A stretch of 11,078 nucleotides of DNA from a virus: positions 1-11,078 of IMG/VR virus record IMGVR_UViG_3300035698_006061, one strand, 5' to 3'. Below are positions 1 to 10,686 of the stretch, piece after piece; position 1 is the stretch's first letter, and every line of letters starts with the position of its first letter. The position numbers and the translations under genes are program-made. The notes beneath the pieces were generated by a model. It was not told the DNA's origin, ran no database searches, and was given only the letters and a program-made list of their open reading frames with translations.

Positions 1-127
1 ACTATAGCAGAAATTGTTCTTCCAATCCATCCACCTATAATACATGTTGGTTTGCATCCTCCAGCGTGTAGTGGAAGTCTATGGCAGTATTCGCATGGTT
101 TAGTTATTTCTTTCATTTTGTTTTTCA
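1..127. repeat. Terminal overlap, copy A: exact duplicate of 10952-11078, defining a 10,951-bp closed unit
   Basis: Base-by-base comparison of both ends: actatagcagaaattgttcttcc...ctttcattttgtttttca is present at both. 1-116 is therefore the same DNA as the 5' part of the 72-aa gene at 10849-11067, not a second gene. Confidence 0.95.
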
Positions 128-192
128 ATTCTGTCCATGTTCACCTCCCTTTTTTAATGTATCTTGGAAGTTTGATAATCTTCTAGCTTCTC
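119..192. repeat. 74-bp perfect direct repeat, copy A (partner 10814-10887)
   Basis: tgtttttcaattctgtccatgttcacctcccttttttaatgtatcttggaagtttgataatcttctagcttctc occurs at both sites; mismatches flank both ends (118 vs 10813, 193 vs 10888). On the minus strand it carries an SD (GGGAGGTGA), an ATG and 6 codons (MDRIEK). Confidence 0.95.
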
Positions 193-517
193 TCTGTTCC
201 TTGTTAAGTATAACATGGCAGTCGTGGCAGACAAAAACGAATTCATCAGTTAGCACGGGTTTCGTTATATGGTGGTGTTCTGTTGCTTTACAGCCACATT
301 TTACACATAATGCACCCTTGAATGGATATTTTTGCCTTGTTAGCCTCTTTATTATCCTCTCTTTTCTAGCTTCAGGTCGTTTTTCGCTTGCATAGTTGTT
401 TGCTTTTTGACTAGCTTGTGCCTGTGCAATACGTTCTTCCCGATGTGCCATGTAATATAATCTTCCATATATTCTTCTTCGTTCCTTTTGAGCTTCTGTT
501 ATTATTCTTTTATTCAT
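125..517 (-). CDS. HNH-family endonuclease (phage terminase-associated type)
   Basis: 130-aa ORF with CVKCGCKATEHHHI...VFVCHDCH, i.e. CxxC...HH...CxxCH, the zinc-coordinating HNH pattern. Basic N-terminus. SD GGAGGT lies 6 nt upstream, and ATGA overlaps the preceding stop. On the circle it sits just upstream of terL, as HNH genes do in HK97-like cos phages. Confidence 0.7.
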   Translation of the reverse strand: MNKRIITEAQKERRRIYGRLYYMAHREERIAQAQASQKANNYASEKRPEARKERIIKRLTRQKYPFKGALCVKCGCKATEHHHITKPVLTDEFVFVCHDCHVILNKEQREARRLSNFQDTLKKGGEHGQN

Positions 518-768
518 CTTATAACCTCCATTTTAAGTTCATTGATAAGGTCGCATATTTTCTTGCCTTTCTCTGTTAAGCATACATCTCTATGCCTTCC
601 TGCTCTGTTTGACTCTACTAAACCCATATCTTCTAAGCCTTCTACTAGCCTGTAGACTGTTGTATTGATTACTCCAATCTTTTTTGAAACTTTAATTAAA
701 GATAGCTCTGGAGTTTTCTTTATCTCGTTTAAGAGTCTTGCAATGTTTACATTAATTAGAGTTAGCAT
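514..768 (-). CDS. Winged helix-turn-helix transcription regulator (MarR/ArsR-like)
   Basis: 84-aa ORF. HTH plus wing pattern: LIKVSKKIGVINTTVYRLVEGLEDMGLVESNRAGRHRDVCLTEKG. Its start overlaps the end of the upstream RHH gene. Confidence 0.75.
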   Translation of the reverse strand: MLTLINVNIARLLNEIKKTPELSLIKVSKKIGVINTTVYRLVEGLEDMGLVESNRAGRHRDVCLTEKGKKICDLINELKMEVIR

Positions 769-1178
769 TCTTCTTCCTTGGCTTGTTTAATTAAATCTGT
801 GTAGTGTATTCCTGTCATCTTGCTCCAAACCTTAGCAGGGCCAATAACGTCTTTCTTTTCTTCAAGTAATCTTCTAAGTGCTATCATTGCTTTGAATGTA
901 TTTACTTTTAGACTCTCTTGTTCACTTACTTCGTTCTTCTCTGCAATTGCTAACATTTTTAACCAATGCTCTTCTTTAGCAGCTACTCTTTCTTTTTCGA
1001 TTTCGATTTCTTTTATCTTCATAGTAATCTTATCTACCTTCTGTTCTCCATCCTGCATGTCTGCATCTATAAGAGCTTGCTGTATAAACTTACTGAAGTT
1101 GAAACCTGCTATTGTAGTTTTTCTACTAGCGAGAATTTCTTCCACGTGTTCGTTTAATGTAATACTGTGTGTAACCAT
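762..1178 (-). CDS. Ribbon-helix-helix (CopG/Arc-like) DNA-binding protein with a coiled-coil C-terminal extension
   Basis: Start placed at internal Met43 of the 180-aa track ORF (MVTHSITLNEHVEEILASRKTT...FSKFIQQALID, a strand-helix-helix pattern). The 42 residues upstream translate AT-rich promoter DNA (IYILVYTKVCIFLLIYAY). A TATA-like box lies 21 nt upstream of this ATG. Confidence 0.6.
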   Translation of the reverse strand: MVTHSITLNEHVEEILASRKTTIAGFNFSKFIQQALIDADMQDGEQKVDKITMKIKEIEIEKERVAAKEEHWLKMLAIAEKNEVSEQESLKVNTFKAMIALRRLLEEKKDVIGPAKVWSKMTGIHYTDLIKQAKEEEC

Positions 1179-1489: not shown

Positions 1490-1579
1490 GTAAGTAGCCT
1501 CTCAGCTCGAAAACTCGCTGTTTAGTAACTCCTCTCTCAGAGTCATGTCTTTTCATTCCTAAAGGTGCGGGAAGTCGGG

Positions 1580-1614
1580 CTCTGCTTTAGCGAGTCTATG
1601 CGAGTATTGCAGAG
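1580..1614. repeat. Hairpin presenting a double GCGAG motif
   Basis: CTCTGC (1580-1585) pairs with GCAGAG (1609-1614). The 23-nt loop is TTTAGCGAGTCTATGCGAGTATT, containing GCGAG-N5-GCGAG. Confidence 0.6.
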
Positions 1615-1786
1615 ATTAGACTGACACGGTTGTCTTGGATTATATTAAAGGGTGGAAATATTATAAAAAATTTCTCTATGAGTCTTTTTTTTTATGAAAA
1701 ATTTCTTGGAGAGTCGAGATTTAACAAAACTAAATACCACTAATAACCGCTAAGAACTACAACTACATACATACATACTACTAAAT

Positions 1787-1808
1787 ATGGGCGACCAACA
1801 TAGCCCAT
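1787..1808. repeat. GC-stem hairpin, GGGC-N10-GCCC family member
   Basis: ATGGGC (1787-1792) pairs with GCCCAT (1803-1808), with the 10-nt loop GACCAACATA. Confidence 0.6.
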
Positions 1809-1888
1809 GTATACATATACATATAATCATACTACTATTACTAACTCCAAATCTCATACATTCAATCAATACTAATACATACACTATT

Positions 1889-1918
1889 AGCCCTCTAAGG
1901 GGCGAGTATGCGAGCCCC
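1889..1918. repeat. Iteron/hairpin unit 1: AGCCCTCTAAGGGGCGAGTATGCGAGCCCC
   Basis: GGGGC (1899-1903) pairs with GCCCC (1914-1918) around the 10-nt loop GAGTATGCGA. Alternatively, GCCC (1890-1893) can pair with GGGC (1900-1903). Contains GCGAG-TAT-GCGAG. Confidence 0.75.
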
Positions 1919-1960
1919 ATATATATTTACTTAACTAATTAATACTTTAAATAACTAATA

Positions 1961-1988
1961 AGCCTCTAAGGGCGAGTATGCGAGCCCT
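1961..1988. repeat. Iteron/hairpin unit 2: AGCCTCTAAGGGCGAGTATGCGAGCCCT
   Basis: Near-identical to unit 1 and 72 bp downstream. Each of the three C/G runs is one base shorter than in unit 1. The stem is AGGGC/GCCCT with the same 10-nt loop. Confidence 0.75.
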
Positions 1989-2160
1989 GTAGTACATTAT
2001 ACTAACTTTATTAATAAGATTGATTAGAGAGGCTCCTAGACCCCTTAGATATTCCTTTAGAGTAGAGGTGTATGGGAGTATGATATAAAGACTAAAGTAG
2101 AATTTCTATGAAATTCTAATATCAGGGGAATATATAAACACTGCTATATTTCTTTGTAAT

Positions 2161-3001: not shown

Positions 3002-3862
3002 TTATGCCTGAGTGTTCGTAATCTTGTAAATAGCTGCAGGGTCTGTAACCTGAACATGGCCAATTTCCCAAGAACGAACTGTGAAATTTATTCCTTTGTC
3101 TTCAACTACTGCACTTGTTAATGGTGTAGCTGCTCTCCATGTAGCTGCTCTTTGTCCAATAACTATTAATGCTTCATCTGCTGTTACACTTGTTGAGACA
3201 ATAATTGTTAATCCAGCAACTTGTCCAACTCTTCCGTTAGAAACAACATCTGCTGTCTTAAAACTTGGATTGTTGATAACTTTGCTGTTCATCATTAAAT
3301 TTCTGTAATCTTTTGGGCTTAATAAAAGGTATCCGTTCATTAAAGCATCGTAATTGCTCTCGAATAATGTTTGTTCACCTGTTAGAATGTCTCTGATAGG
3401 GTCTCTATCTGTTGCTGTTGCATCATCCCAGTTTGCTACTGCTGCTGCAGTTGAAATACCGTCAGCTCCTGATAATGTTGTATAAATATATGAATCTACT
3501 TGGCTAGCAATACTTCTTGCTACTCTTAAGATTGTTCTTGCTTGTACATCGATAGCATCTGTAAGCTTATCTTCTAAGAAAATAGTACCTTCTGCTGCGA
3601 ACTTAATGTTTTGTCCTTGTACTTTAGTCCAACTTGGGTCTACGTGTGGAAATGCAGCTCCTCTTGCTACTCCTTGTACACTAACTCCTTCACCTGTTGC
3701 AGATAATTCAGTTGCTGTTTCTCTGTAATAAGTTTCTGTCCATTTAGAACTAGATTGATTAAGCAATACTTGCTTCATTTTGAATTGTTTTAAAGCAAAT
3801 CCTTTAACTGCTCTTTCAACATTTTCTCCTCGAATATCTACCATTCCATTACTATCAGCCAT
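3002..3862 (-). CDS. Major capsid protein (HK97-fold type, no delta domain)
   Basis: 286-aa ORF directly after the scaffold-like and decoration-like genes. A/T/V/G-rich and Cys-free. SD-like GAGGGTGA upstream. Assigned from position, size and composition, not from a named motif. Confidence 0.7.
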   Translation of the reverse strand: MADSNGMVDIRGENVERAVKGFALKQFKMKQVLLNQSSSKWTETYYRETATELSATGEGVSVQGVARGAAFPHVDPSWTKVQGQNIKFAAEGTIFLEDKLTDAIDVQARTILRVARSIASQVDSYIYTTLSGADGISTAAAVANWDDATATDRDPIRDILTGEQTLFESNYDALMNGYLLLSPKDYRNLMMNSKVINNPSFKTADVVSNGRVGQVAGLTIIVSTSVTADEALIVIGQRAATWRAATPLTSAVVEDKGINFTVRSWEIGHVQVTDPAAIYKITNTQA

Positions 3863-4283: not shown

Positions 4284-4290
4284 TTTATAA
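4284..4290 (-). promoter_or_regulatory. TATA/box-A-like element for the decoration-MCP unit
   Basis: The minus strand reads ccTTATAAA-24 nt-ATG(4259). No SD precedes the ATG. It has the same ccTTATAAA core as the site at 1200-1206. Confidence 0.4.
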
Positions 4291-4302
4291 GGATTGCTAT
4301 AA

Positions 4303-4467
4303 CTAATCCTCTTTTTCTTCTGTTTCGGGCTCTTCAGGGCACTTTTCTAGTGCTTTCTCAAAAGCTGCGATAACAATCTCGTGAATTGCAATACCTTCAG
4401 TGTGTGCTAAAAGTGCTGCTTTAGATGCTTCAAGTTCCCTTAGAATTGATGTTCTAGATAAATCCAT
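4303..4467 (-). CDS. 54-aa acidic helical protein (not in the supplied ORF track)
   Basis: Hand translation: MDLSRTSILRELEASKAALLAHTEGIAIHEIVIAAFEKALEKCPEEPETEEKED. Its ATG overlaps the end of the scaffold-like ORF by 14 nt. It fills an otherwise empty 190-nt gap. Confidence 0.45.
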   Translation of the reverse strand: MDLSRTSILRELEASKAALLAHTEGIAIHEIVIAAFEKALEKCPEEPETEEKED

Positions 4468-4783
4468 CTGCTGCTAATGGGTTTACTTCACCTAACATTA
4501 GTTTCTCTGCAAATTCTTCATCAGTTAAAGGTCTGTCTTCTTCTTTATTCATGCCTGCTTCTGCTCTACCACCTAGAATGTTTCTTGCTTGGAGTGCTTC
4601 TGTTCTATCGTTCTGTATTCTTAGTGCCTCTGAGGCTTTCTCAATCCTTTCAGCTGCATCGTTTGCGGCTTCAAGCACAGGAGTTGTCTGCTGCTGAATC
4701 CTTTCATTGCTATTTTCAACTGCTCTTTCTGCTGGTTGTTCAGTTTTTTGTGTTTCATTTTCTTCCATTTGTACTACCTCCAT
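4454..4783 (-). CDS. Scaffolding-like protein
   Basis: 109 aa, highly charged and predicted helical (E/Q/A/R-rich). Sits upstream of the decoration and MCP genes. Strong SD GGAGGT 7 nt upstream. No protease gene is present, consistent with a separate scaffold. Confidence 0.5.
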   Translation of the reverse strand: MEVVQMEENETQKTEQPAERAVENSNERIQQQTTPVLEAANDAAERIEKASEALRIQNDRTEALQARNILGGRAEAGMNKEEDRPLTDEEFAEKLMLGEVNPLAADGFI

Positions 4784-6036: not shown

Positions 6037-6188
6037 TATAATAATATTCCCGCAATTATTGCTAGTGTTATTGTGATTGCTGTTGTACACATCCACCTGT
6101 TAAGTTTAACTTTACCATTAGTCTGTATTACATGTTTTTCTATTTCACATATCTTATCATAGATTTCTCTGTTTGTTACTGTTACCAT
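6036..6188 (-). CDS. 50-aa C-terminally membrane-anchored protein (not in the supplied ORF track)
   Basis: Hand translation: MVTVTNREIYDKICEIEKHVIQTNGKVKLNRWMCTTAITITLAIIAGILL. TAATG overlaps occur at both ends (with the portal stop and with the start of the 411-aa gene). Confidence 0.5.
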   Translation of the reverse strand: MVTVTNREIYDKICEIEKHVIQTNGKVKLNRWMCTTAITITLAIIAGILL

Positions 6189-7279
6189 TATTGTCCAACT
6201 CCTGCTTGTGTATCATTAGGCTGTGCTGCCTTCGTTGGTCCATCTTTAGCATTGTCGCTTAATAGTTCGTTTTCTAAACTTGCTGGGAATACTAAATCAA
6301 TATCCATACCTAGTTGTATACCAACTTGTTCCTCAATGAATGTTTGGTCTTCTTCTACACTCTGTTGGAATGCAAGATAAACTATCTTAGCACTTGCTTC
6401 TGTAAAGTTCTTTGAGTTTCCTACTATAATCTTTGGTGTTGCACATGCCTCGTAGAAAGAATCGTTAAGTGAATCAATCCATGTTAGTGGGTTTAATGTA
6501 CTATTAGGGCTTACGCTTAATTGTTCTGGAACTACTGCTCCCTTTGGTACATATAAGTTTTCATTTAACTTGTAAGCTTTATCCATCTTTGTTTTGAATG
6601 CTGTAATCTTAGCTGGTACATCTGTATCTAAGTGGAATATCATTCTTGGATATACATTTCTATGCATTACTATCTTGTAATCTGCTATTGCTTCATTTCT
6701 TGCTAAAATTATATCTTCTAGTTTTTCAACCACACTTACTCCATGAATCTCATCTGCTACTCTGTTACGACTTAAGTGAAATATTTCCTCTTGTTGGAAT
6801 GTTTTAGTACCACCATTTTTTGTTTTACTAACTTGTTCGTATTTCTGAATTATCCCTTTGTTGTTTGCCACAATCAGTATAGCTCCTGTATCAAGCACCT
6901 TTAGATTTATTAAATTGCCTTCTTCGTCTCTGATGATTTCTGCATAAGAATCTCCTCCAATCCACATAGTTCTAATCATATTTTCTATAATTGTATTAAA
7001 TGTATCTCTACCATAGCCTTTAATCTGGTCTATAACAAGTTGTGTATCTGTATCTGTTTCAATTCCTTTACCTATTGTCCATGTAGCTCTAGCATCAATT
7101 GTACTGTTTAGCTCTGGTATTTGTTTGTAGTATCCGAAATATTTTGACCAATTTGATTGTTGCCACCTTGTTTCTTTTTCCCCAGTTGCTGCATCTGTGT
7201 TCATTATAGATACACTGTAATCTGTCATCTGATTTGTTAAATCACTTATTACTGTATTTCCTATATCGTTATCTGCCAT
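6188..7279 (-). CDS. Portal protein (HK97/SPP1-type family)
   Basis: 363-aa ORF. Its size, the central segment EEIFHLSRNRVADEIHGVSVVEKLEDIILARNEA and the polar/acidic C-terminal tail are typical of phage portals. It lies in the head module with terL and the MCP. Confidence 0.8.
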   Translation of the reverse strand: MADNDIGNTVISDLTNQMTDYSVSIMNTDAATGEKETRWQQSNWSKYFGYYKQIPELNSTIDARATWTIGKGIETDTDTQLVIDQIKGYGRDTFNTIIENMIRTMWIGGDSYAEIIRDEEGNLINLKVLDTGAILIVANNKGIIQKYEQVSKTKNGGTKTFQQEEIFHLSRNRVADEIHGVSVVEKLEDIILARNEAIADYKIVMHRNVYPRMIFHLDTDVPAKITAFKTKMDKAYKLNENLYVPKGAVVPEQLSVSPNSTLNPLTWIDSLNDSFYEACATPKIIVGNSKNFTEASAKIVYLAFQQSVEEDQTFIEEQVGIQLGMDIDLVFPASLENELLSDNAKDGPTKAAQPNDTQAGVGQ

Positions 7280-7497: not shown

Positions 7498-7787
7498 TAT
7501 AATTGTACTCCTGTTAGTCTTGTTACTGCTGGCATTTGACTTGTTTTAATTTTAAAATCTGTAATATTTTTTATTTCATTATCTATACTATTTTTAACTT
7601 TTAAAAGTATTTCTGTATTATCCATATCTGATGGGAATGAAAATCCATATACTTTGTCTTTAATTATATTTTCTGTTTTATCTAAACCAAAAATAATTGT
7701 ATCTACAAAAGTATCTCCAGTGTTTGTTAGCCTAACTGATACTTTTCTTCTCATACTTTCATCTTTGTCTTCTATTATTGTTATCAT
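7497..7787 (-). CDS. Hypothetical 96-aa protein
   Basis: ORF with SD-like GGTGGAG upstream and TAATG junctions at both ends. No recognisable motif. Confidence 0.55.
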   Translation of the reverse strand: MITIIEDKDESMRRKVSVRLTNTGDTFVDTIIFGLDKTENIIKDKVYGFSFPSDMDNTEILLKVKNSIDNEIKNITDFKIKTSQMPAVTRLTGVQL

Positions 7788-9197: not shown

Positions 9198-10478
9198 TTA
9201 GTACACATATATGTTTAATGTCTGGTCTTTGACGCACCAAGCGCCTCTGACGATACCATCTGCAATATGCATATAATTACCAAAGTATTTAGTTCCCATA
9301 TTTGATTTCTCGTACTGCACTGACTTGAGCGACATGAAGATTTCTGGGTCATCAAGTAGTTTTATTTCACCACGTTCCATCAATGCTAGTAAGTTATTGT
9401 AGATGTCTTCCTTTAGTACTCTCTTTTTTCTCTTTTCATCGTAAGTTAGTGGTCTATTCATGTTATTTATAGCTACTGTCTTTCGTTTTGTCTCATCTGT
9501 AGTAAGTAATTGGTCTAGAACTCCGACTCCCATTCCACCATCATCAATGAATATTTGTCTAAAGTCATATGCTTTGTCTAAATTGATAATATGTCTTGTA
9601 GTTTCTGTAGTTAGAGTTTGTTTTGTAATTTGATTCTCTACTTGTTCTATAGCTTTTGGGTTTGTACGGTCAAATACTTCAAAAGTACTTTCATCTTTTC
9701 CCATTCTTGCTATGTCCACTCCTAAGTAGTAACGCTTTCCTTGTTGTATATAACCTCTACGCTTCAAACACATACATCTTTTGATTAAATCATCTGGGAA
9801 AACTTGTCTTAATGAATCTATAAAGGCTCCTTCATATTCTTGAGCATACTGAGTTACTGTCATTCTTCCTCTTTCTCTAGCTAAATGCTCTAATGCCTTC
9901 TCTTTCTGTAATTGTGTCCAACTATCTGTGATTTCTCTCTCATTTATCACTGTTTCACTACTTATTTGGAAGTTAGTAAAGTTTGTATCGTGAAATGCTC
10001 TGTGAAAGAAGCCTGAATTTCCATGTGGGGTTGATAATAGTACAATATCTCCACCTGTTGTAAGTAACATTGGTGTAATTGCTTCCCATACTAGTTCTGG
10101 TACAAAGGCTGCCTCATCTGCATATAGTCTACTTACTGTGAAACCTCTGATACCATGGCCATCTAAGCCCGTAGGAAGGCATCTAATGACACTTTTGTTG
10201 TTTAACTTGACCTTTGATAGTGTTGGTTTGTCTTTTCCTTTCATTATGTATGATTTATAGTTGTCTTGTAAGTACCACATAGTCTTTTGGAATAACTCTT
10301 GTGCTTGTCTTTCTACAGAAGCTATGATTAAAATGCTGGAACCTGGGTTCAAGGCGGCATAATCAGCTGCATCTTTCGCTATTACAGTTGACTTGCCTAC
10401 CTGTCGCCCTGAGCAAAGAACAATATTGCCTTTTGTTTCTAGGACTTTCTCTTGCCATTTATCTAATTTGATTTTCAT
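9198..10478 (-). CDS. terL: Terminase large subunit (packaging ATPase + nuclease)
   Basis: 426 aa. Deviant Walker A LCSGRQVGKST (compare T4 gp17 SRQLGKT). Walker B with catalytic Glu: RLYADEAAF. C-terminal RNase-H-like acidic motifs: YLGVDIARMGKDES and IFIDDGGMGVG. Confidence 0.92.
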   Translation of the reverse strand: MKIKLDKWQEKVLETKGNIVLCSGRQVGKSTVIAKDAADYAALNPGSSILIIASVERQAQELFQKTMWYLQDNYKSYIMKGKDKPTLSKVKLNNKSVIRCLPTGLDGHGIRGFTVSRLYADEAAFVPELVWEAITPMLLTTGGDIVLLSTPHGNSGFFHRAFHDTNFTNFQISSETVINEREITDSWTQLQKEKALEHLARERGRMTVTQYAQEYEGAFIDSLRQVFPDDLIKRCMCLKRRGYIQQGKRYYLGVDIARMGKDESTFEVFDRTNPKAIEQVENQITKQTLTTETTRHIINLDKAYDFRQIFIDDGGMGVGVLDQLLTTDETKRKTVAINNMNRPLTYDEKRKKRVLKEDIYNNLLALMERGEIKLLDDPEIFMSLKSVQYEKSNMGTKYFGNYMHIADGIVRGAWCVKDQTLNIYVY

Positions 10479-10487
10479 GAGTATGAA

Positions 10488-10505
10488 GTCCCCTTCAATG
10501 GGGAC
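10488..10505. repeat. Hairpin repeat H2: GTCCCC-TTCAAT-GGGGAC
   Basis: 6-bp GC-rich stem. The 17-nt string tatgaagtccccttcaa (10482-10498) is identical to 10651-10667. Confidence 0.85.
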
Positions 10506-10532
10506 AAATTGATTTAGTAGACTTCTCTACAA

Positions 10533-10597
10533 TACACACGGCAGGATTCGAACCTGCAATAGTCCTACGGGAATGACCCGTCCAGTTCCTCGTGTGT
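10533..10597 (-). ncRNA. tRNA-like element: perfect acceptor stem and T-arm, truncated core
   Basis: Minus strand: ACACACG-N33-GCAGG-TTCGAAT-CCTGC-CGTGTGT-A. It has a 7-bp acceptor stem, a canonical 5-bp T-stem and a GTTCGAATC T-loop. Only 33 nt lie where positions 8-48 need about 41. The core folds either as ACGGG-TCATT-CCCGT (CAT centred in a too-small loop) or as GGAA-N12-TTCC (D-arm-like), not both. No encoded CCA. Confidence 0.5.
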
Positions 10598-10656
10598 AAT
10601 CAATGAGGGCTTTAAGCTTCCATTTACGGAAGTCCCACACCCTCGATGACTATGAA

Positions 10657-10679
10657 GTCCCCTTCAAAAAAATGGGGAC
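10657..10679 (-). terminator. Hairpin repeat H1 with an internal T7 run: GTCCCC-ATTTTTTTGAA-GGGGAC (minus strand)
   Basis: Begins 8 nt after the stop of the 48-aa gene. T7 is a strong archaeal-type oligo-T terminator. The T-run lies in the loop, not after the stem, so it is atypical for a bacterial intrinsic terminator. Confidence 0.4.
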
Positions 10680-10686
10680 GATTAAT

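Follow-up and report, generated by a model that had tools for sequence, protein, structure and literature searches.

The window analysed here, the 11,078-nt IMG/VR record IMGVR_UViG_3300035698_006061, is the circular-mapping genome (~10.95 kb) of a tailed virus, and it raises a question: how is such a genome copied and packaged, given that no replication protein or integrase was recognised in any of its open reading frames (ORFs)? The answer must sit in the 1.1-kb noncoding region at 1182–2302, the only long ORF-free stretch in the window, which separates the last late genes from the beginning of the early ones; an initial annotation made from the sequence alone (the first-pass annotation) had rightly described a region of ~1 kb without a credible ORF. 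Every credible gene is on the minus strand, so to speak of the plus strand, which we call the hairpin strand, is to speak of the strand antisense to every gene, which the early genes use as their template. In this region we found hairpins of a single design whose counterparts occur in the syntenic region of related viruses. Sequence comparison indicates that the hairpin is a real, structurally conserved, strand-specific cis-element, and we tentatively read the hairpins, with a probability of about 0.35, as single-stranded-DNA initiation signals of a host-dependent replication origin.

Hairpins of one design in the noncoding region

The hairpins and their accompanying boxes are the following.

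1889–1918, plus strand: unit 1, AGCCCTCTAAGGGGCGAGTATGCGAGCCCC (AGCCC-TCTAA-GGGGC-GA-GTATGC-GA-GCCCC), main hairpin at 1899–1918
1961–1988, plus strand: unit 2, AGCCTCTAAGGGCGAGTATGCGAGCCCT (AGCC-TCTA-AGGGC-GA-GTATGC-GA-GCCCT), main hairpin at 1969–1988
1787–1808, plus strand: hairpin ATGGGC-GACCAACATA-GCCCAT, with a 6-bp stem and a loop that begins with GA
1580–1614, plus strand: hairpin CTCTGC/GCAGAG, enclosing GCGAGTCTATGCGAG at 1590–1604
1496–1502, plus strand: AGCCTCT box, followed by an inverted hairpin copy
1503–1520, minus strand: fifth hairpin, cagc-GAGTTTTCGA-gctg (cagc-GA-GTTTTC-GA-gctg)
2027–2049, minus strand: inverted flanking boxes, reading TCTAAGGGG-TCTAGG-AGCCTCT; fold not significant

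The first-pass annotation had placed every listed unit correctly, including the hairpins at 1787–1808 and 1580–1614, and the related string that it noted at 1496–1520 amounts to a fifth hairpin of the same design on the opposite strand. Units 1 and 2 are near-identical and offset by 72 nt, as it had reported; they have in common the 18-mer GGGCGAGTATGCGAGCCC, at 1900 and 1970, which gave 2 matches with at most 3 mismatches in the window, and none of 200 shuffles gave any. Their run lengths also differ as claimed (CCC/GGGG/CCCC versus CC/GGG/CCC). These differences, which had been taken for correlated indels, are real, but they can equally be read as a compensatory change from G-C to A-T in the main hairpin, affecting its fifth pair (GGGGC/GCCCC versus AGGGC/GCCCT), a reading that needs one further change, in the upstream C-run. 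An alternative upstream pairing, GCCC/GGGC, is possible in unit 1; the two mutually exclusive hairpins that had been proposed are visible in the window and in one relative (L007), but they are not conserved across relatives, and nearest-neighbour folding picks the GGGGC/GCCCC hairpin over the upstream alternative.

The remaining elements vary in how fully they show the design. The hairpin at 1787–1808 has a DNA fold energy of −5.3 kcal/mol (z −2.6) and was not detected at E ≤ 1 by the covariance model R1 described below. At 1580–1614 the motif is present, flanked by a C-G and a G·T pair only, so that its outer stem has 1 Watson-Crick pair. The inverted boxes AGAGGCT (2028–2034) and CCCCTTAGA (2041–2049) were found where the first-pass annotation had them; no GA-type hairpin was found at 2027–2049. 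Six of the seven plus-strand copies of GCGAG in the window fall in 1590–1984, where 0.35 would be expected (17-fold enrichment), more than chance would give.

Conservation of structure and strand across relatives

To avoid choosing hairpins by their stems, we searched 116 non-redundant loci (847 kb) with the loop motif alone (CGAG-N1-8-[GC]CGAG), requiring no stem. The hairpin strand gave 35 sites, 15 of which had at least 4 flanking Watson-Crick pairs, and the gene strand gave 18 sites, none of them so paired; by our own calculation the chance of at least 4 flanking pairs is ~1/64 per site. The 15 well-paired outer stems are all different sequences. In a 23-row alignment, its rows again selected by the motif alone, 79% of cells were paired versus 24–42% with the partners slid, 42 cells had changed on both sides versus 17 in shuffles, and the covariation score was 0.41 versus 0.17 in shuffles, with none of 500 shuffles reaching 0.41. 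Wobble pairs (G·U/G·T) were rare in the stems. The exact 18-mer GGGCGAGTATGCGAGCCC had no match in IMG/VR, and blastn of 1182–2302 against 115 related loci returned (TA)n matches only. Close relatives for base-by-base comparison are absent from the collections, and covariation, which the first-pass annotation had proposed as a check, was therefore measured at the motif level, where the score supports pairing.

A covariance model built from the 23-row alignment (R1) and searched over 712 kb gave 29 matches at E ≤ 1 and matched 18 genomes at E < 0.01; unit 1 scored 24.0 bits (E 0.0011) and unit 2 scored 21.9 bits (E 0.005). The matches point one way in 27 of 29 cases, and both exceptions are in L082 (1–300 and 9078–11636). 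In this contig an inversion relative to the portal-capsid block has taken in the early genes, the large terminase gene (TerL) and also the hairpins with their upstream box; hairpin orientation is tied to the early-gene/TerL block. The same contig begins with 38 G, adjoining long G-runs. Among the 116 loci, hairpins with a GC stem and the GA...GA motif number 23 on the hairpin strand and 1 on the other. The stem-loop design is found in the syntenic region of relatives, most of which have an ORF-free region of 1–1.5 kb at the corresponding place. Selection on structure, which had been argued from units 1 and 2, is thus supported by a design that recurs with at least 15 different outer stems, a conserved loop core and a constant strand relative to the early/TerL block.

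The hairpin occurs independently of the early proteins. In tblastn searches the terminase, portal, adaptor, cement and capsid proteins are common to the window and its relatives, whereas the HNH, winged-helix (wHTH), 72-aa and 50-aa early proteins have no homologue in 115 related loci, and the putative RHH protein has one (L001, 32%), in a locus without a GA-type hairpin. The suggestion that the RHH and wHTH proteins bind the repeats is not supported, as the early proteins are almost without homologues in hairpin-bearing relatives and the “RHH” has no Pfam support; it also fits poorly with the conservation of the pairing and of a non-palindromic core, unlike in duplex iterons. Since the early proteins are not shared, the reader of the hairpin would come from the host or be one of the conserved proteins for structure or packaging, or else the structure acts alone. 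The early block at 125–1181 is hypervariable, while the structural genes are 40–80% identical across relatives.

Resemblance of the core to DNA mini-hairpins

The shared design comprises a variable, GC-rich outer stem of 4–7 bp, a near-invariant C-G closing pair, a GA to either side, and inside these an inner stem of 1–2 bp with a loop of 3–4 nt. Its core in relatives is C-GA-GC-GNA-GC-GA-G, and a second subtype has a CC/GG inner stem (GA-CC-GAA-GG-GA in L137 and GA-CC-GTA-GG-GA in L007). By our tally, the loop tips of relatives are mostly GNA triloops closed by C-G (GAA, GGA, GTA), with one GNNA. The heptamers or octamers of the mini-hairpin class found at these tips are GCGAAGC, GCGGAGC, GCGTAGC, GCGATAGC and CCGAAGG, the last being the hairpin tip of L137 (7641–7663). 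In one relative (L004) repeated GCGA units surround a central GAA (GCGAGCGAGCGAAGCGAGCGAGCGA), and the string would self-pair, with G-C pairs and tandem G·A mismatches in alternation. In DNA, tandem G·A pairs are stabilised by a pyrimidine-GA-purine context (C-GA-G). Judged by its sequence, the core in relatives has the form of a mini-hairpin of the d(GCGNAGC) type extended by tandem G·A pairs.

According to a 2026 review (PMC13037366), d(GCGNAGC) and d(GCGNNAGC) melt at ~76 °C as DNA and their RNA versions are far weaker, and the mini-hairpins resist nucleases and bind single-strand-binding protein poorly. The same source locates them at primase start sites, the complementary-strand origins of phages G4, St-1 and alpha3, as well as in RSF1010 ssiA (CCGAAGG) and in N4 virion-polymerase promoters (GCGGAGC). 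The sequence rules therefore favour DNA as the probable active form of the hairpins. Stems of 4–7 bp appear too short for extrusion from duplex DNA, which implies that the active form would be single-stranded. Two other readings of the core were rejected: a K-turn bound by L7Ae, since there is no 3-nt bulge and the G·A pairs make a symmetric 2×2 internal loop, and a CsrA-type sponge with GGA loops, since GGA tips occur in some relatives only.

A candidate replication origin

Upstream of the main hairpins, the noncoding region contains further recurrent elements.

1428–1489: A/T-only tract composed of T8, (TA)n and (TAA)n, 62 nt, the longest G/C-free run of the genome and a candidate DNA-unwinding element
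1661–1684 and 1692–1715, plus strand: two copies of an A/T-rich box with GAGTC, TTATRAAAAATTTCT-N3-4-GAGTC (direct repeat D8)
1742–1754, plus strand: conserved box AATAACCGCTAAG, ~25 nt past GAGTC, inside a G-poor, C/A-rich stretch at 1716–1888

In the window 412 nt separate the A/T-only tract from the hairpins; such runs are present in 21 relatives, and in 14 of these the longest lies within ~700 nt of the hairpins. Four of the six GAGTC copies in the window fall in 1540–1715. The element AAAATTT-N8-GAGTYC is also present in L001, L004, L009, L011, L014, L056, L065, L082 and others, and in at least 12 relatives the box AATAAYCGCWWA keeps both its strand and its spacing. Read along the hairpin strand, many relatives show one order: the AAAATTT box, ~8 nt, GAGTYC, ~25 nt of G-poor sequence, AATAAYCGCWWA, a C/A-rich stretch and a GC-rich part made up of hairpins, G-quadruplex-type G-runs and C-run/G-run/G-run strings. 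The window counterparts are the doubled box at 1661–1715, the conserved box at 1742–1754 and the hairpins from 1787 on.

In the leftward direction the A/T box resembles an archaeal BRE+TATA, and in L004, L011 and L034 it lies ~21 nt from a leaderless early gene. By our interpretation of these sequences it is probably an early promoter, and it may be bidirectional, because L011, L013 and L034 carry genes on the hairpin strand. Scans for tRNAs, promoters and terminators returned nothing in 1182–2302, and GC skew in the window is dominated by one-strand coding. Relatives also show G-quadruplex-type runs (e.g., GGGTGGGTGGGTGGG) and a recurrent string of a C-run, 2–4 nt, a G-run, 2–5 nt and a G-run (e.g., CCCCC-TA-GGGGGG-CA-GGGGGG), both on the hairpin strand and 3' of the conserved box (minus strands of L057 5900–5960, L009 4600–4650, L001 1100–1210, L014 4900–4930, L072 8660–8700 and L056 5780–5810). 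These strings could form alternative hairpins, triplexes or structures that stabilise R-loops.

We favour an origin signal because the hairpins of relatives follow the mini-hairpin rules, an A/T tract is present, no replication genes were recognised and hairpins face each other in the window; on these grounds an origin role of the region is plausible. The noncoding region would then be where replication begins in a virus that lacks a replication protein of its own. The A/T tract would open by itself or through transcription, and once the plus strand is exposed and single-stranded, the hairpins on it would fold and withstand coating by single-strand-binding protein. The folded hairpins would serve as landmarks at which host primase or polymerase begins DNA synthesis. 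The minus-strand hairpin at 1503–1520 and the four plus-strand hairpins at 1580–1988 would face each other in the manner of ssiA and ssiB.

Several known systems resemble this arrangement in part. With the mini-hairpins of G4, St-1 and alpha3, the hairpins share a C-GNA-G triloop on two G-C pairs at the tips in relatives, strand specificity, a noncoding location with several copies, and the proposed resistance to single-strand-binding protein and marking of start sites. Those are single-stranded-DNA phages primed by DnaG, whereas ours is a double-stranded tailed virus, in which the putative mini-hairpin sits inside tandem G·A pairs and an outer stem that varies, and in the window copies has G-TATG-C tips. 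The orientation specificity of single-strand initiation signals is found here both in the R1 matches (27/29) and in the GC-stem GA hairpins (23/24). At oriV of RSF1010, where the RepB' primase acts, ssiA and ssiB are likewise opposite-strand hairpins that face each other by an A/T-rich segment, and CCGAAGG of ssiA is also a hairpin tip in L137. However, RSF1010 encodes its own primase, helicase and initiator and has iterons, none of which is detectable here. The sso of rolling-circle plasmids and the minus-strand origin of M13 are also orientation-specific, structured noncoding elements read by host enzymes, but no rolling-circle Rep or double-strand origin is present here; TAGCGA strings, which recall the sso, occur at 1588–1593 and in L006, not systematically. 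The early promoters of N4 lie on the template strand upstream of early genes, and several copies stand close to the start of the genome. Their use depends on a virion polymerase of 3,500 aa, unlike anything in the 10.95-kb genome, whose biggest proteins (431, 426 and 363 aa) are not polymerase-like. A further likeness is that N4 promoters have a stem of 5 bp capped by a triloop, either GGA or GAA (PMC13037366).

A number of observations weigh against the origin reading. The tips of the window units are GTATGC, GTTTTC and GTCTATGC, not the canonical GCGNAGC, which makes the argument from DNA mini-hairpins weaker for the window genome. Nearest-neighbour fold energies are only −4 to −6 kcal/mol (z −0.9 to −2.6) and individually non-significant, and global RNA or DNA folding of the region gave no significant z on either strand; such models do not capture the extra stability of mini-hairpins, and with energies this modest the case for structure rests on the comparison between genomes. 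A GA-type hairpin is present in only 15 of 45 near-complete relatives (~1/3), the others having G-runs or other GC hairpins. The hairpin at 1503–1520 is the sole inverted one among the 24 with a GC stem and GA...GA, so that an opposite-strand copy like that of RSF1010 is found in the window only. Rolling-circle synthesis co-directional with the genes would, we infer, displace the minus strand and not the hairpin strand. Finally, the 15-nt core GCGAGCGNAGCGAGC often lies 50–260 nt upstream of TerL elsewhere, including in phages with sigma-70 promoters and in contigs of up to 49 kb, and this proximity makes a packaging site there at least as natural as an origin.

Packaging, transcription and other explanations

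The hairpin cluster might instead be a packaging-initiation or genome-end signal at which terminase starts cutting concatemers, with packaging running toward TerL. We consider this unlikely, although the position of the hairpins agrees with it: they are always upstream of, and oriented with, the early/TerL block, even in the inverted L082, and where there is a hairpin, TerL, portal and capsid are always conserved, whereas the early proteins are not. Among the matches listed, 24 other IMG/VR loci have GCGAGCGNAGCGAGC together with a TerL-like ORF, and in 13 of them the motif is 50–2000 nt upstream of the TerL start, mostly antisense. In L144, L153, L161, L179 and L210 it lies 51–260 nt before TerL, with no space for another gene. 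L161 and L210 have dense clusters of hairpins with C-GNA-G triloops and GCGA zippers 120–260 nt upstream of TerL and a second cluster at the far side of a small-gene cassette. They also have textbook sigma-70 promoters, TTGACA-17-TATAAT, repeated before small genes (L161, 11550–11760; L210, 1700–1900 and 520–590), which means that the motif is not archaea-specific.

Contig ends were tallied as well. Of 23 hairpin-bearing family contigs, 14 end within 1 kb of hairpins versus ~4 expected (L006, L129, L082, L114, L078, L126, L071, L123, L024, L099, L102, L124, L065 and L199), and L006 ends exactly in a GCCAAGC-GAA-GCTTGGC hairpin. This clustering may reflect either real genome termini, as a packaging signal would predict, or assembly breaks at GC-rich structured DNA such as hairpins and G-runs. 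The C-run/G-run strings of relatives recall herpesvirus pac1. To our knowledge, the known pac and cos sites consist of duplex DNA to which small terminase binds, unlike short strand-specific hairpins, and a literature search found no description of hairpin-type pac sites. Moreover, terminase acts on duplex DNA, yet stems of 4–7 bp would be too short to extrude from it, and the outer stems vary in sequence, which leaves a duplex reader with ~13 nt. The HNH-TerL arrangement of the window also suggests the gap at 10479–10686 as an alternative cos. Iterons and cos/pac sites resemble the hairpins in being repeated motifs beside an A/T-rich tract, upstream of terminase; they are duplex motifs with a cognate protein, whereas here the pairing covaries, the strand bias is extreme and no protein co-occurs.

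A role in RNA is likewise doubtful. The hairpins would in this case be structures in a plus-strand noncoding transcript from a divergent A/T-box promoter, acting as a regulatory or decoy RNA, or as a primer or R-loop RNA. A TATA-like box at fixed spacing, followed by a G-poor leader and a structured GC-rich body, is consistent with such a transcript; the protein genes on the hairpin strand of L011, L013 and L034 show that rightward transcription exists in the family, and the hairpin-strand G-runs of many relatives would favour R-loops. However, the A/T box reads best, in our view, as a leftward BRE+TATA toward the early genes. By our own calculation, runs of T5 or longer are few downstream of the box (4 in ~6 kb versus ~9 expected), but runs of A5 or longer are as depleted (both ~2–3-fold), so the depletion is not strand-specific. 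Rfam 15 has no family in 1182–2302 at E ≤ 1, and RNA fold z-scores are −1.4 to +0.6 on either strand. The tips are mostly C-G-closed GNA triloops, as the DNA mini-hairpin rule has it, and not GNRA or UNCG, and wobble pairs, as noted above, are rare. One window copy is on the opposite strand, and RNA versions of the mini-hairpins are reported to be much less stable (PMC13037366).

Quite improbable is a selfish or generic element, that is, a small mobile palindrome or an insulator or terminator that spreads among viral genomes and has no part in origin or packaging. Its main attraction is that GCGAGCGNAGCGAGC extends beyond the family to at least 120 IMG/VR loci, with ~45% of the matches listed, by our count, in contigs of <45% GC, where chance matches are negligible. 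The copies are intergenic, often multiple and in both orientations in unrelated viral contigs; L158 has 8 in 14.6 kb at 35% GC, where we calculate ~5e-6 expected, and contigs labelled as giant-virus bins (e.g., L217) carry the motif too. Within the family, by contrast with scattered mobile repeats, position, strand and upstream box are fixed; the flanks vary, so that no transposed unit is apparent, and no U/T tract follows the hairpins. Loci with multiple copies include L158, L165/L223/L257, L143, L242 and L217, in which the motif sometimes stands beside GGGGAACCTAGGTTCCCC-type palindromes, and ~4.7 kb around the copies in L165 is without ORFs of at least 80 aa.

It is very unlikely that the repeats are duplex iterons or operators for the virus RHH and wHTH proteins, with GCGAG-N3-5-GCGAG as tandem half-sites about one helical turn apart. 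GCGAG pairs do lie 8–10 bp apart at four sites, one of them inverted, AGCCTCT boxes occur in three direct copies and one inverted copy, and the gene of the confirmed wHTH protein adjoins the region. Against this, the motif is found in at least 17 relatives without a homologue of the window wHTH, HNH or small ORFs, and the single weak homologue of the putative RHH, itself lacking Pfam support, sits in a genome without the hairpin. The flanking stems covary, which duplex binding does not need, and the 23:1 strand bias is unexpected for duplex sites. There are two near-identical units only and no initiator (Rep) gene. A virus-borne mini-CRISPR array, or solitary repeat units, made up of units 1 and 2 and their 42-nt interval, was rejected despite repeats of 28–30 nt, a 72-nt period and hairpin-forming potential, since the two repeats differ by three indels, the near-pure A/T interval had no protospacer-like match in 258 loci (just low-complexity matches of 12–18 nt), and relatives have the same loop with different stems and irregular spacing.

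Compared with these alternatives, we retain initiation of replication on single-stranded DNA as the preferred role. The genomes of the virus family (10.5–12.5 kb) are no larger than, or smaller than, those of the smallest tailed phages in culture, for which 11.6 kb is cited (bioRxiv 10.1101/2025.06.18.659913). For so small a genome, a hairpin conserved in structure, confined to one strand and fitting the mini-hairpin rules is a concrete, synthesisable candidate for a cis-signal. The 15-nt core beside terminase genes in unrelated contigs suggests a general signal that annotation pipelines ignore. More speculatively, and with low confidence, this “GA-zipper” mini-hairpin (an outer stem around C-GA-GC-GNA-GC-GA-G) might represent an unrecognised, widespread class of structure-specific cis-signals of tailed viruses, which would mark the place, in most cases a short way upstream of the terminase/early block, at which initiation on single-stranded viral DNA by the host machinery occurs, and would allow tailed viruses of <11.6 kb to dispense with replication genes.

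Gene content and relatives of the virus

The genes assigned in the window are given below.

9198–10478, minus strand: T4-type large terminase (TerL)
6188–7279, minus strand: portal
3002–3862, minus strand: HK97-type capsid protein
minus strand: cement protein
762–1178, minus strand: putative RHH protein, 138 aa, no Pfam match even at E 0.1
514–768, minus strand: winged-helix protein (wHTH), confirmed, beside the noncoding region
125–517, minus strand: HNH-like ORF

No small terminase subunit was recognisable in the window. The window ends carry a 127-bp direct terminal repeat, a length that is also a common assembler k-mer size, and the circular map of the genome rests on this repeat. Relatives are abundant in metagenomes, with capsid proteins 42–80% identical to that of the window; the family contigs reach at most 10.5–12.5 kb and give circular maps. 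A search of a phage-genome collection found no match to the capsid protein in deposited phage genomes, and among cultured viruses TerL is matched best by that of a haloarchaeal virus (28%). We found no paper on this virus group in the literature. A first genome scan for the host gave no match, and the host labels taken from metagenome-assembled genomes disagree (Heimdallarchaeota, Nitrosopumilus, Woesearchaeota and Spirochaetales), all of them attached to stand-alone contigs of ~11 kb. In four relatives the late operon ends in gene-strand, bacterial-style terminators made of a hairpin and T7–8 (L014 ~4590–4620, L063 ~2700–2730, L009 ~4290–4320 and L007 ~7700–7725). By contrast, the first early gene looks leaderless, with a TATA box ~21–25 nt upstream.

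A tRNA-like element is present on the minus strand at 10533–10597; its acceptor stem has 7 bp and its T-arm is perfect (GCAGGUUCGAAUCCUGC). With the Rfam tRNA model it reaches 25.7 bits, short of the gathering score (29), and ARAGORN makes no call there. The element lies in the 210-nt gap that precedes TerL and is flanked by two copies of the hairpin GTCCCCATT(TTTTT)GAAGGGGAC-TTCATA (10650–10682 and 10480–10506), and could be an attachment-site remnant, a feature of a cos region or a tRNA mimic. T-arm-like strings also occur in the noncoding DNA of L009 and L063.

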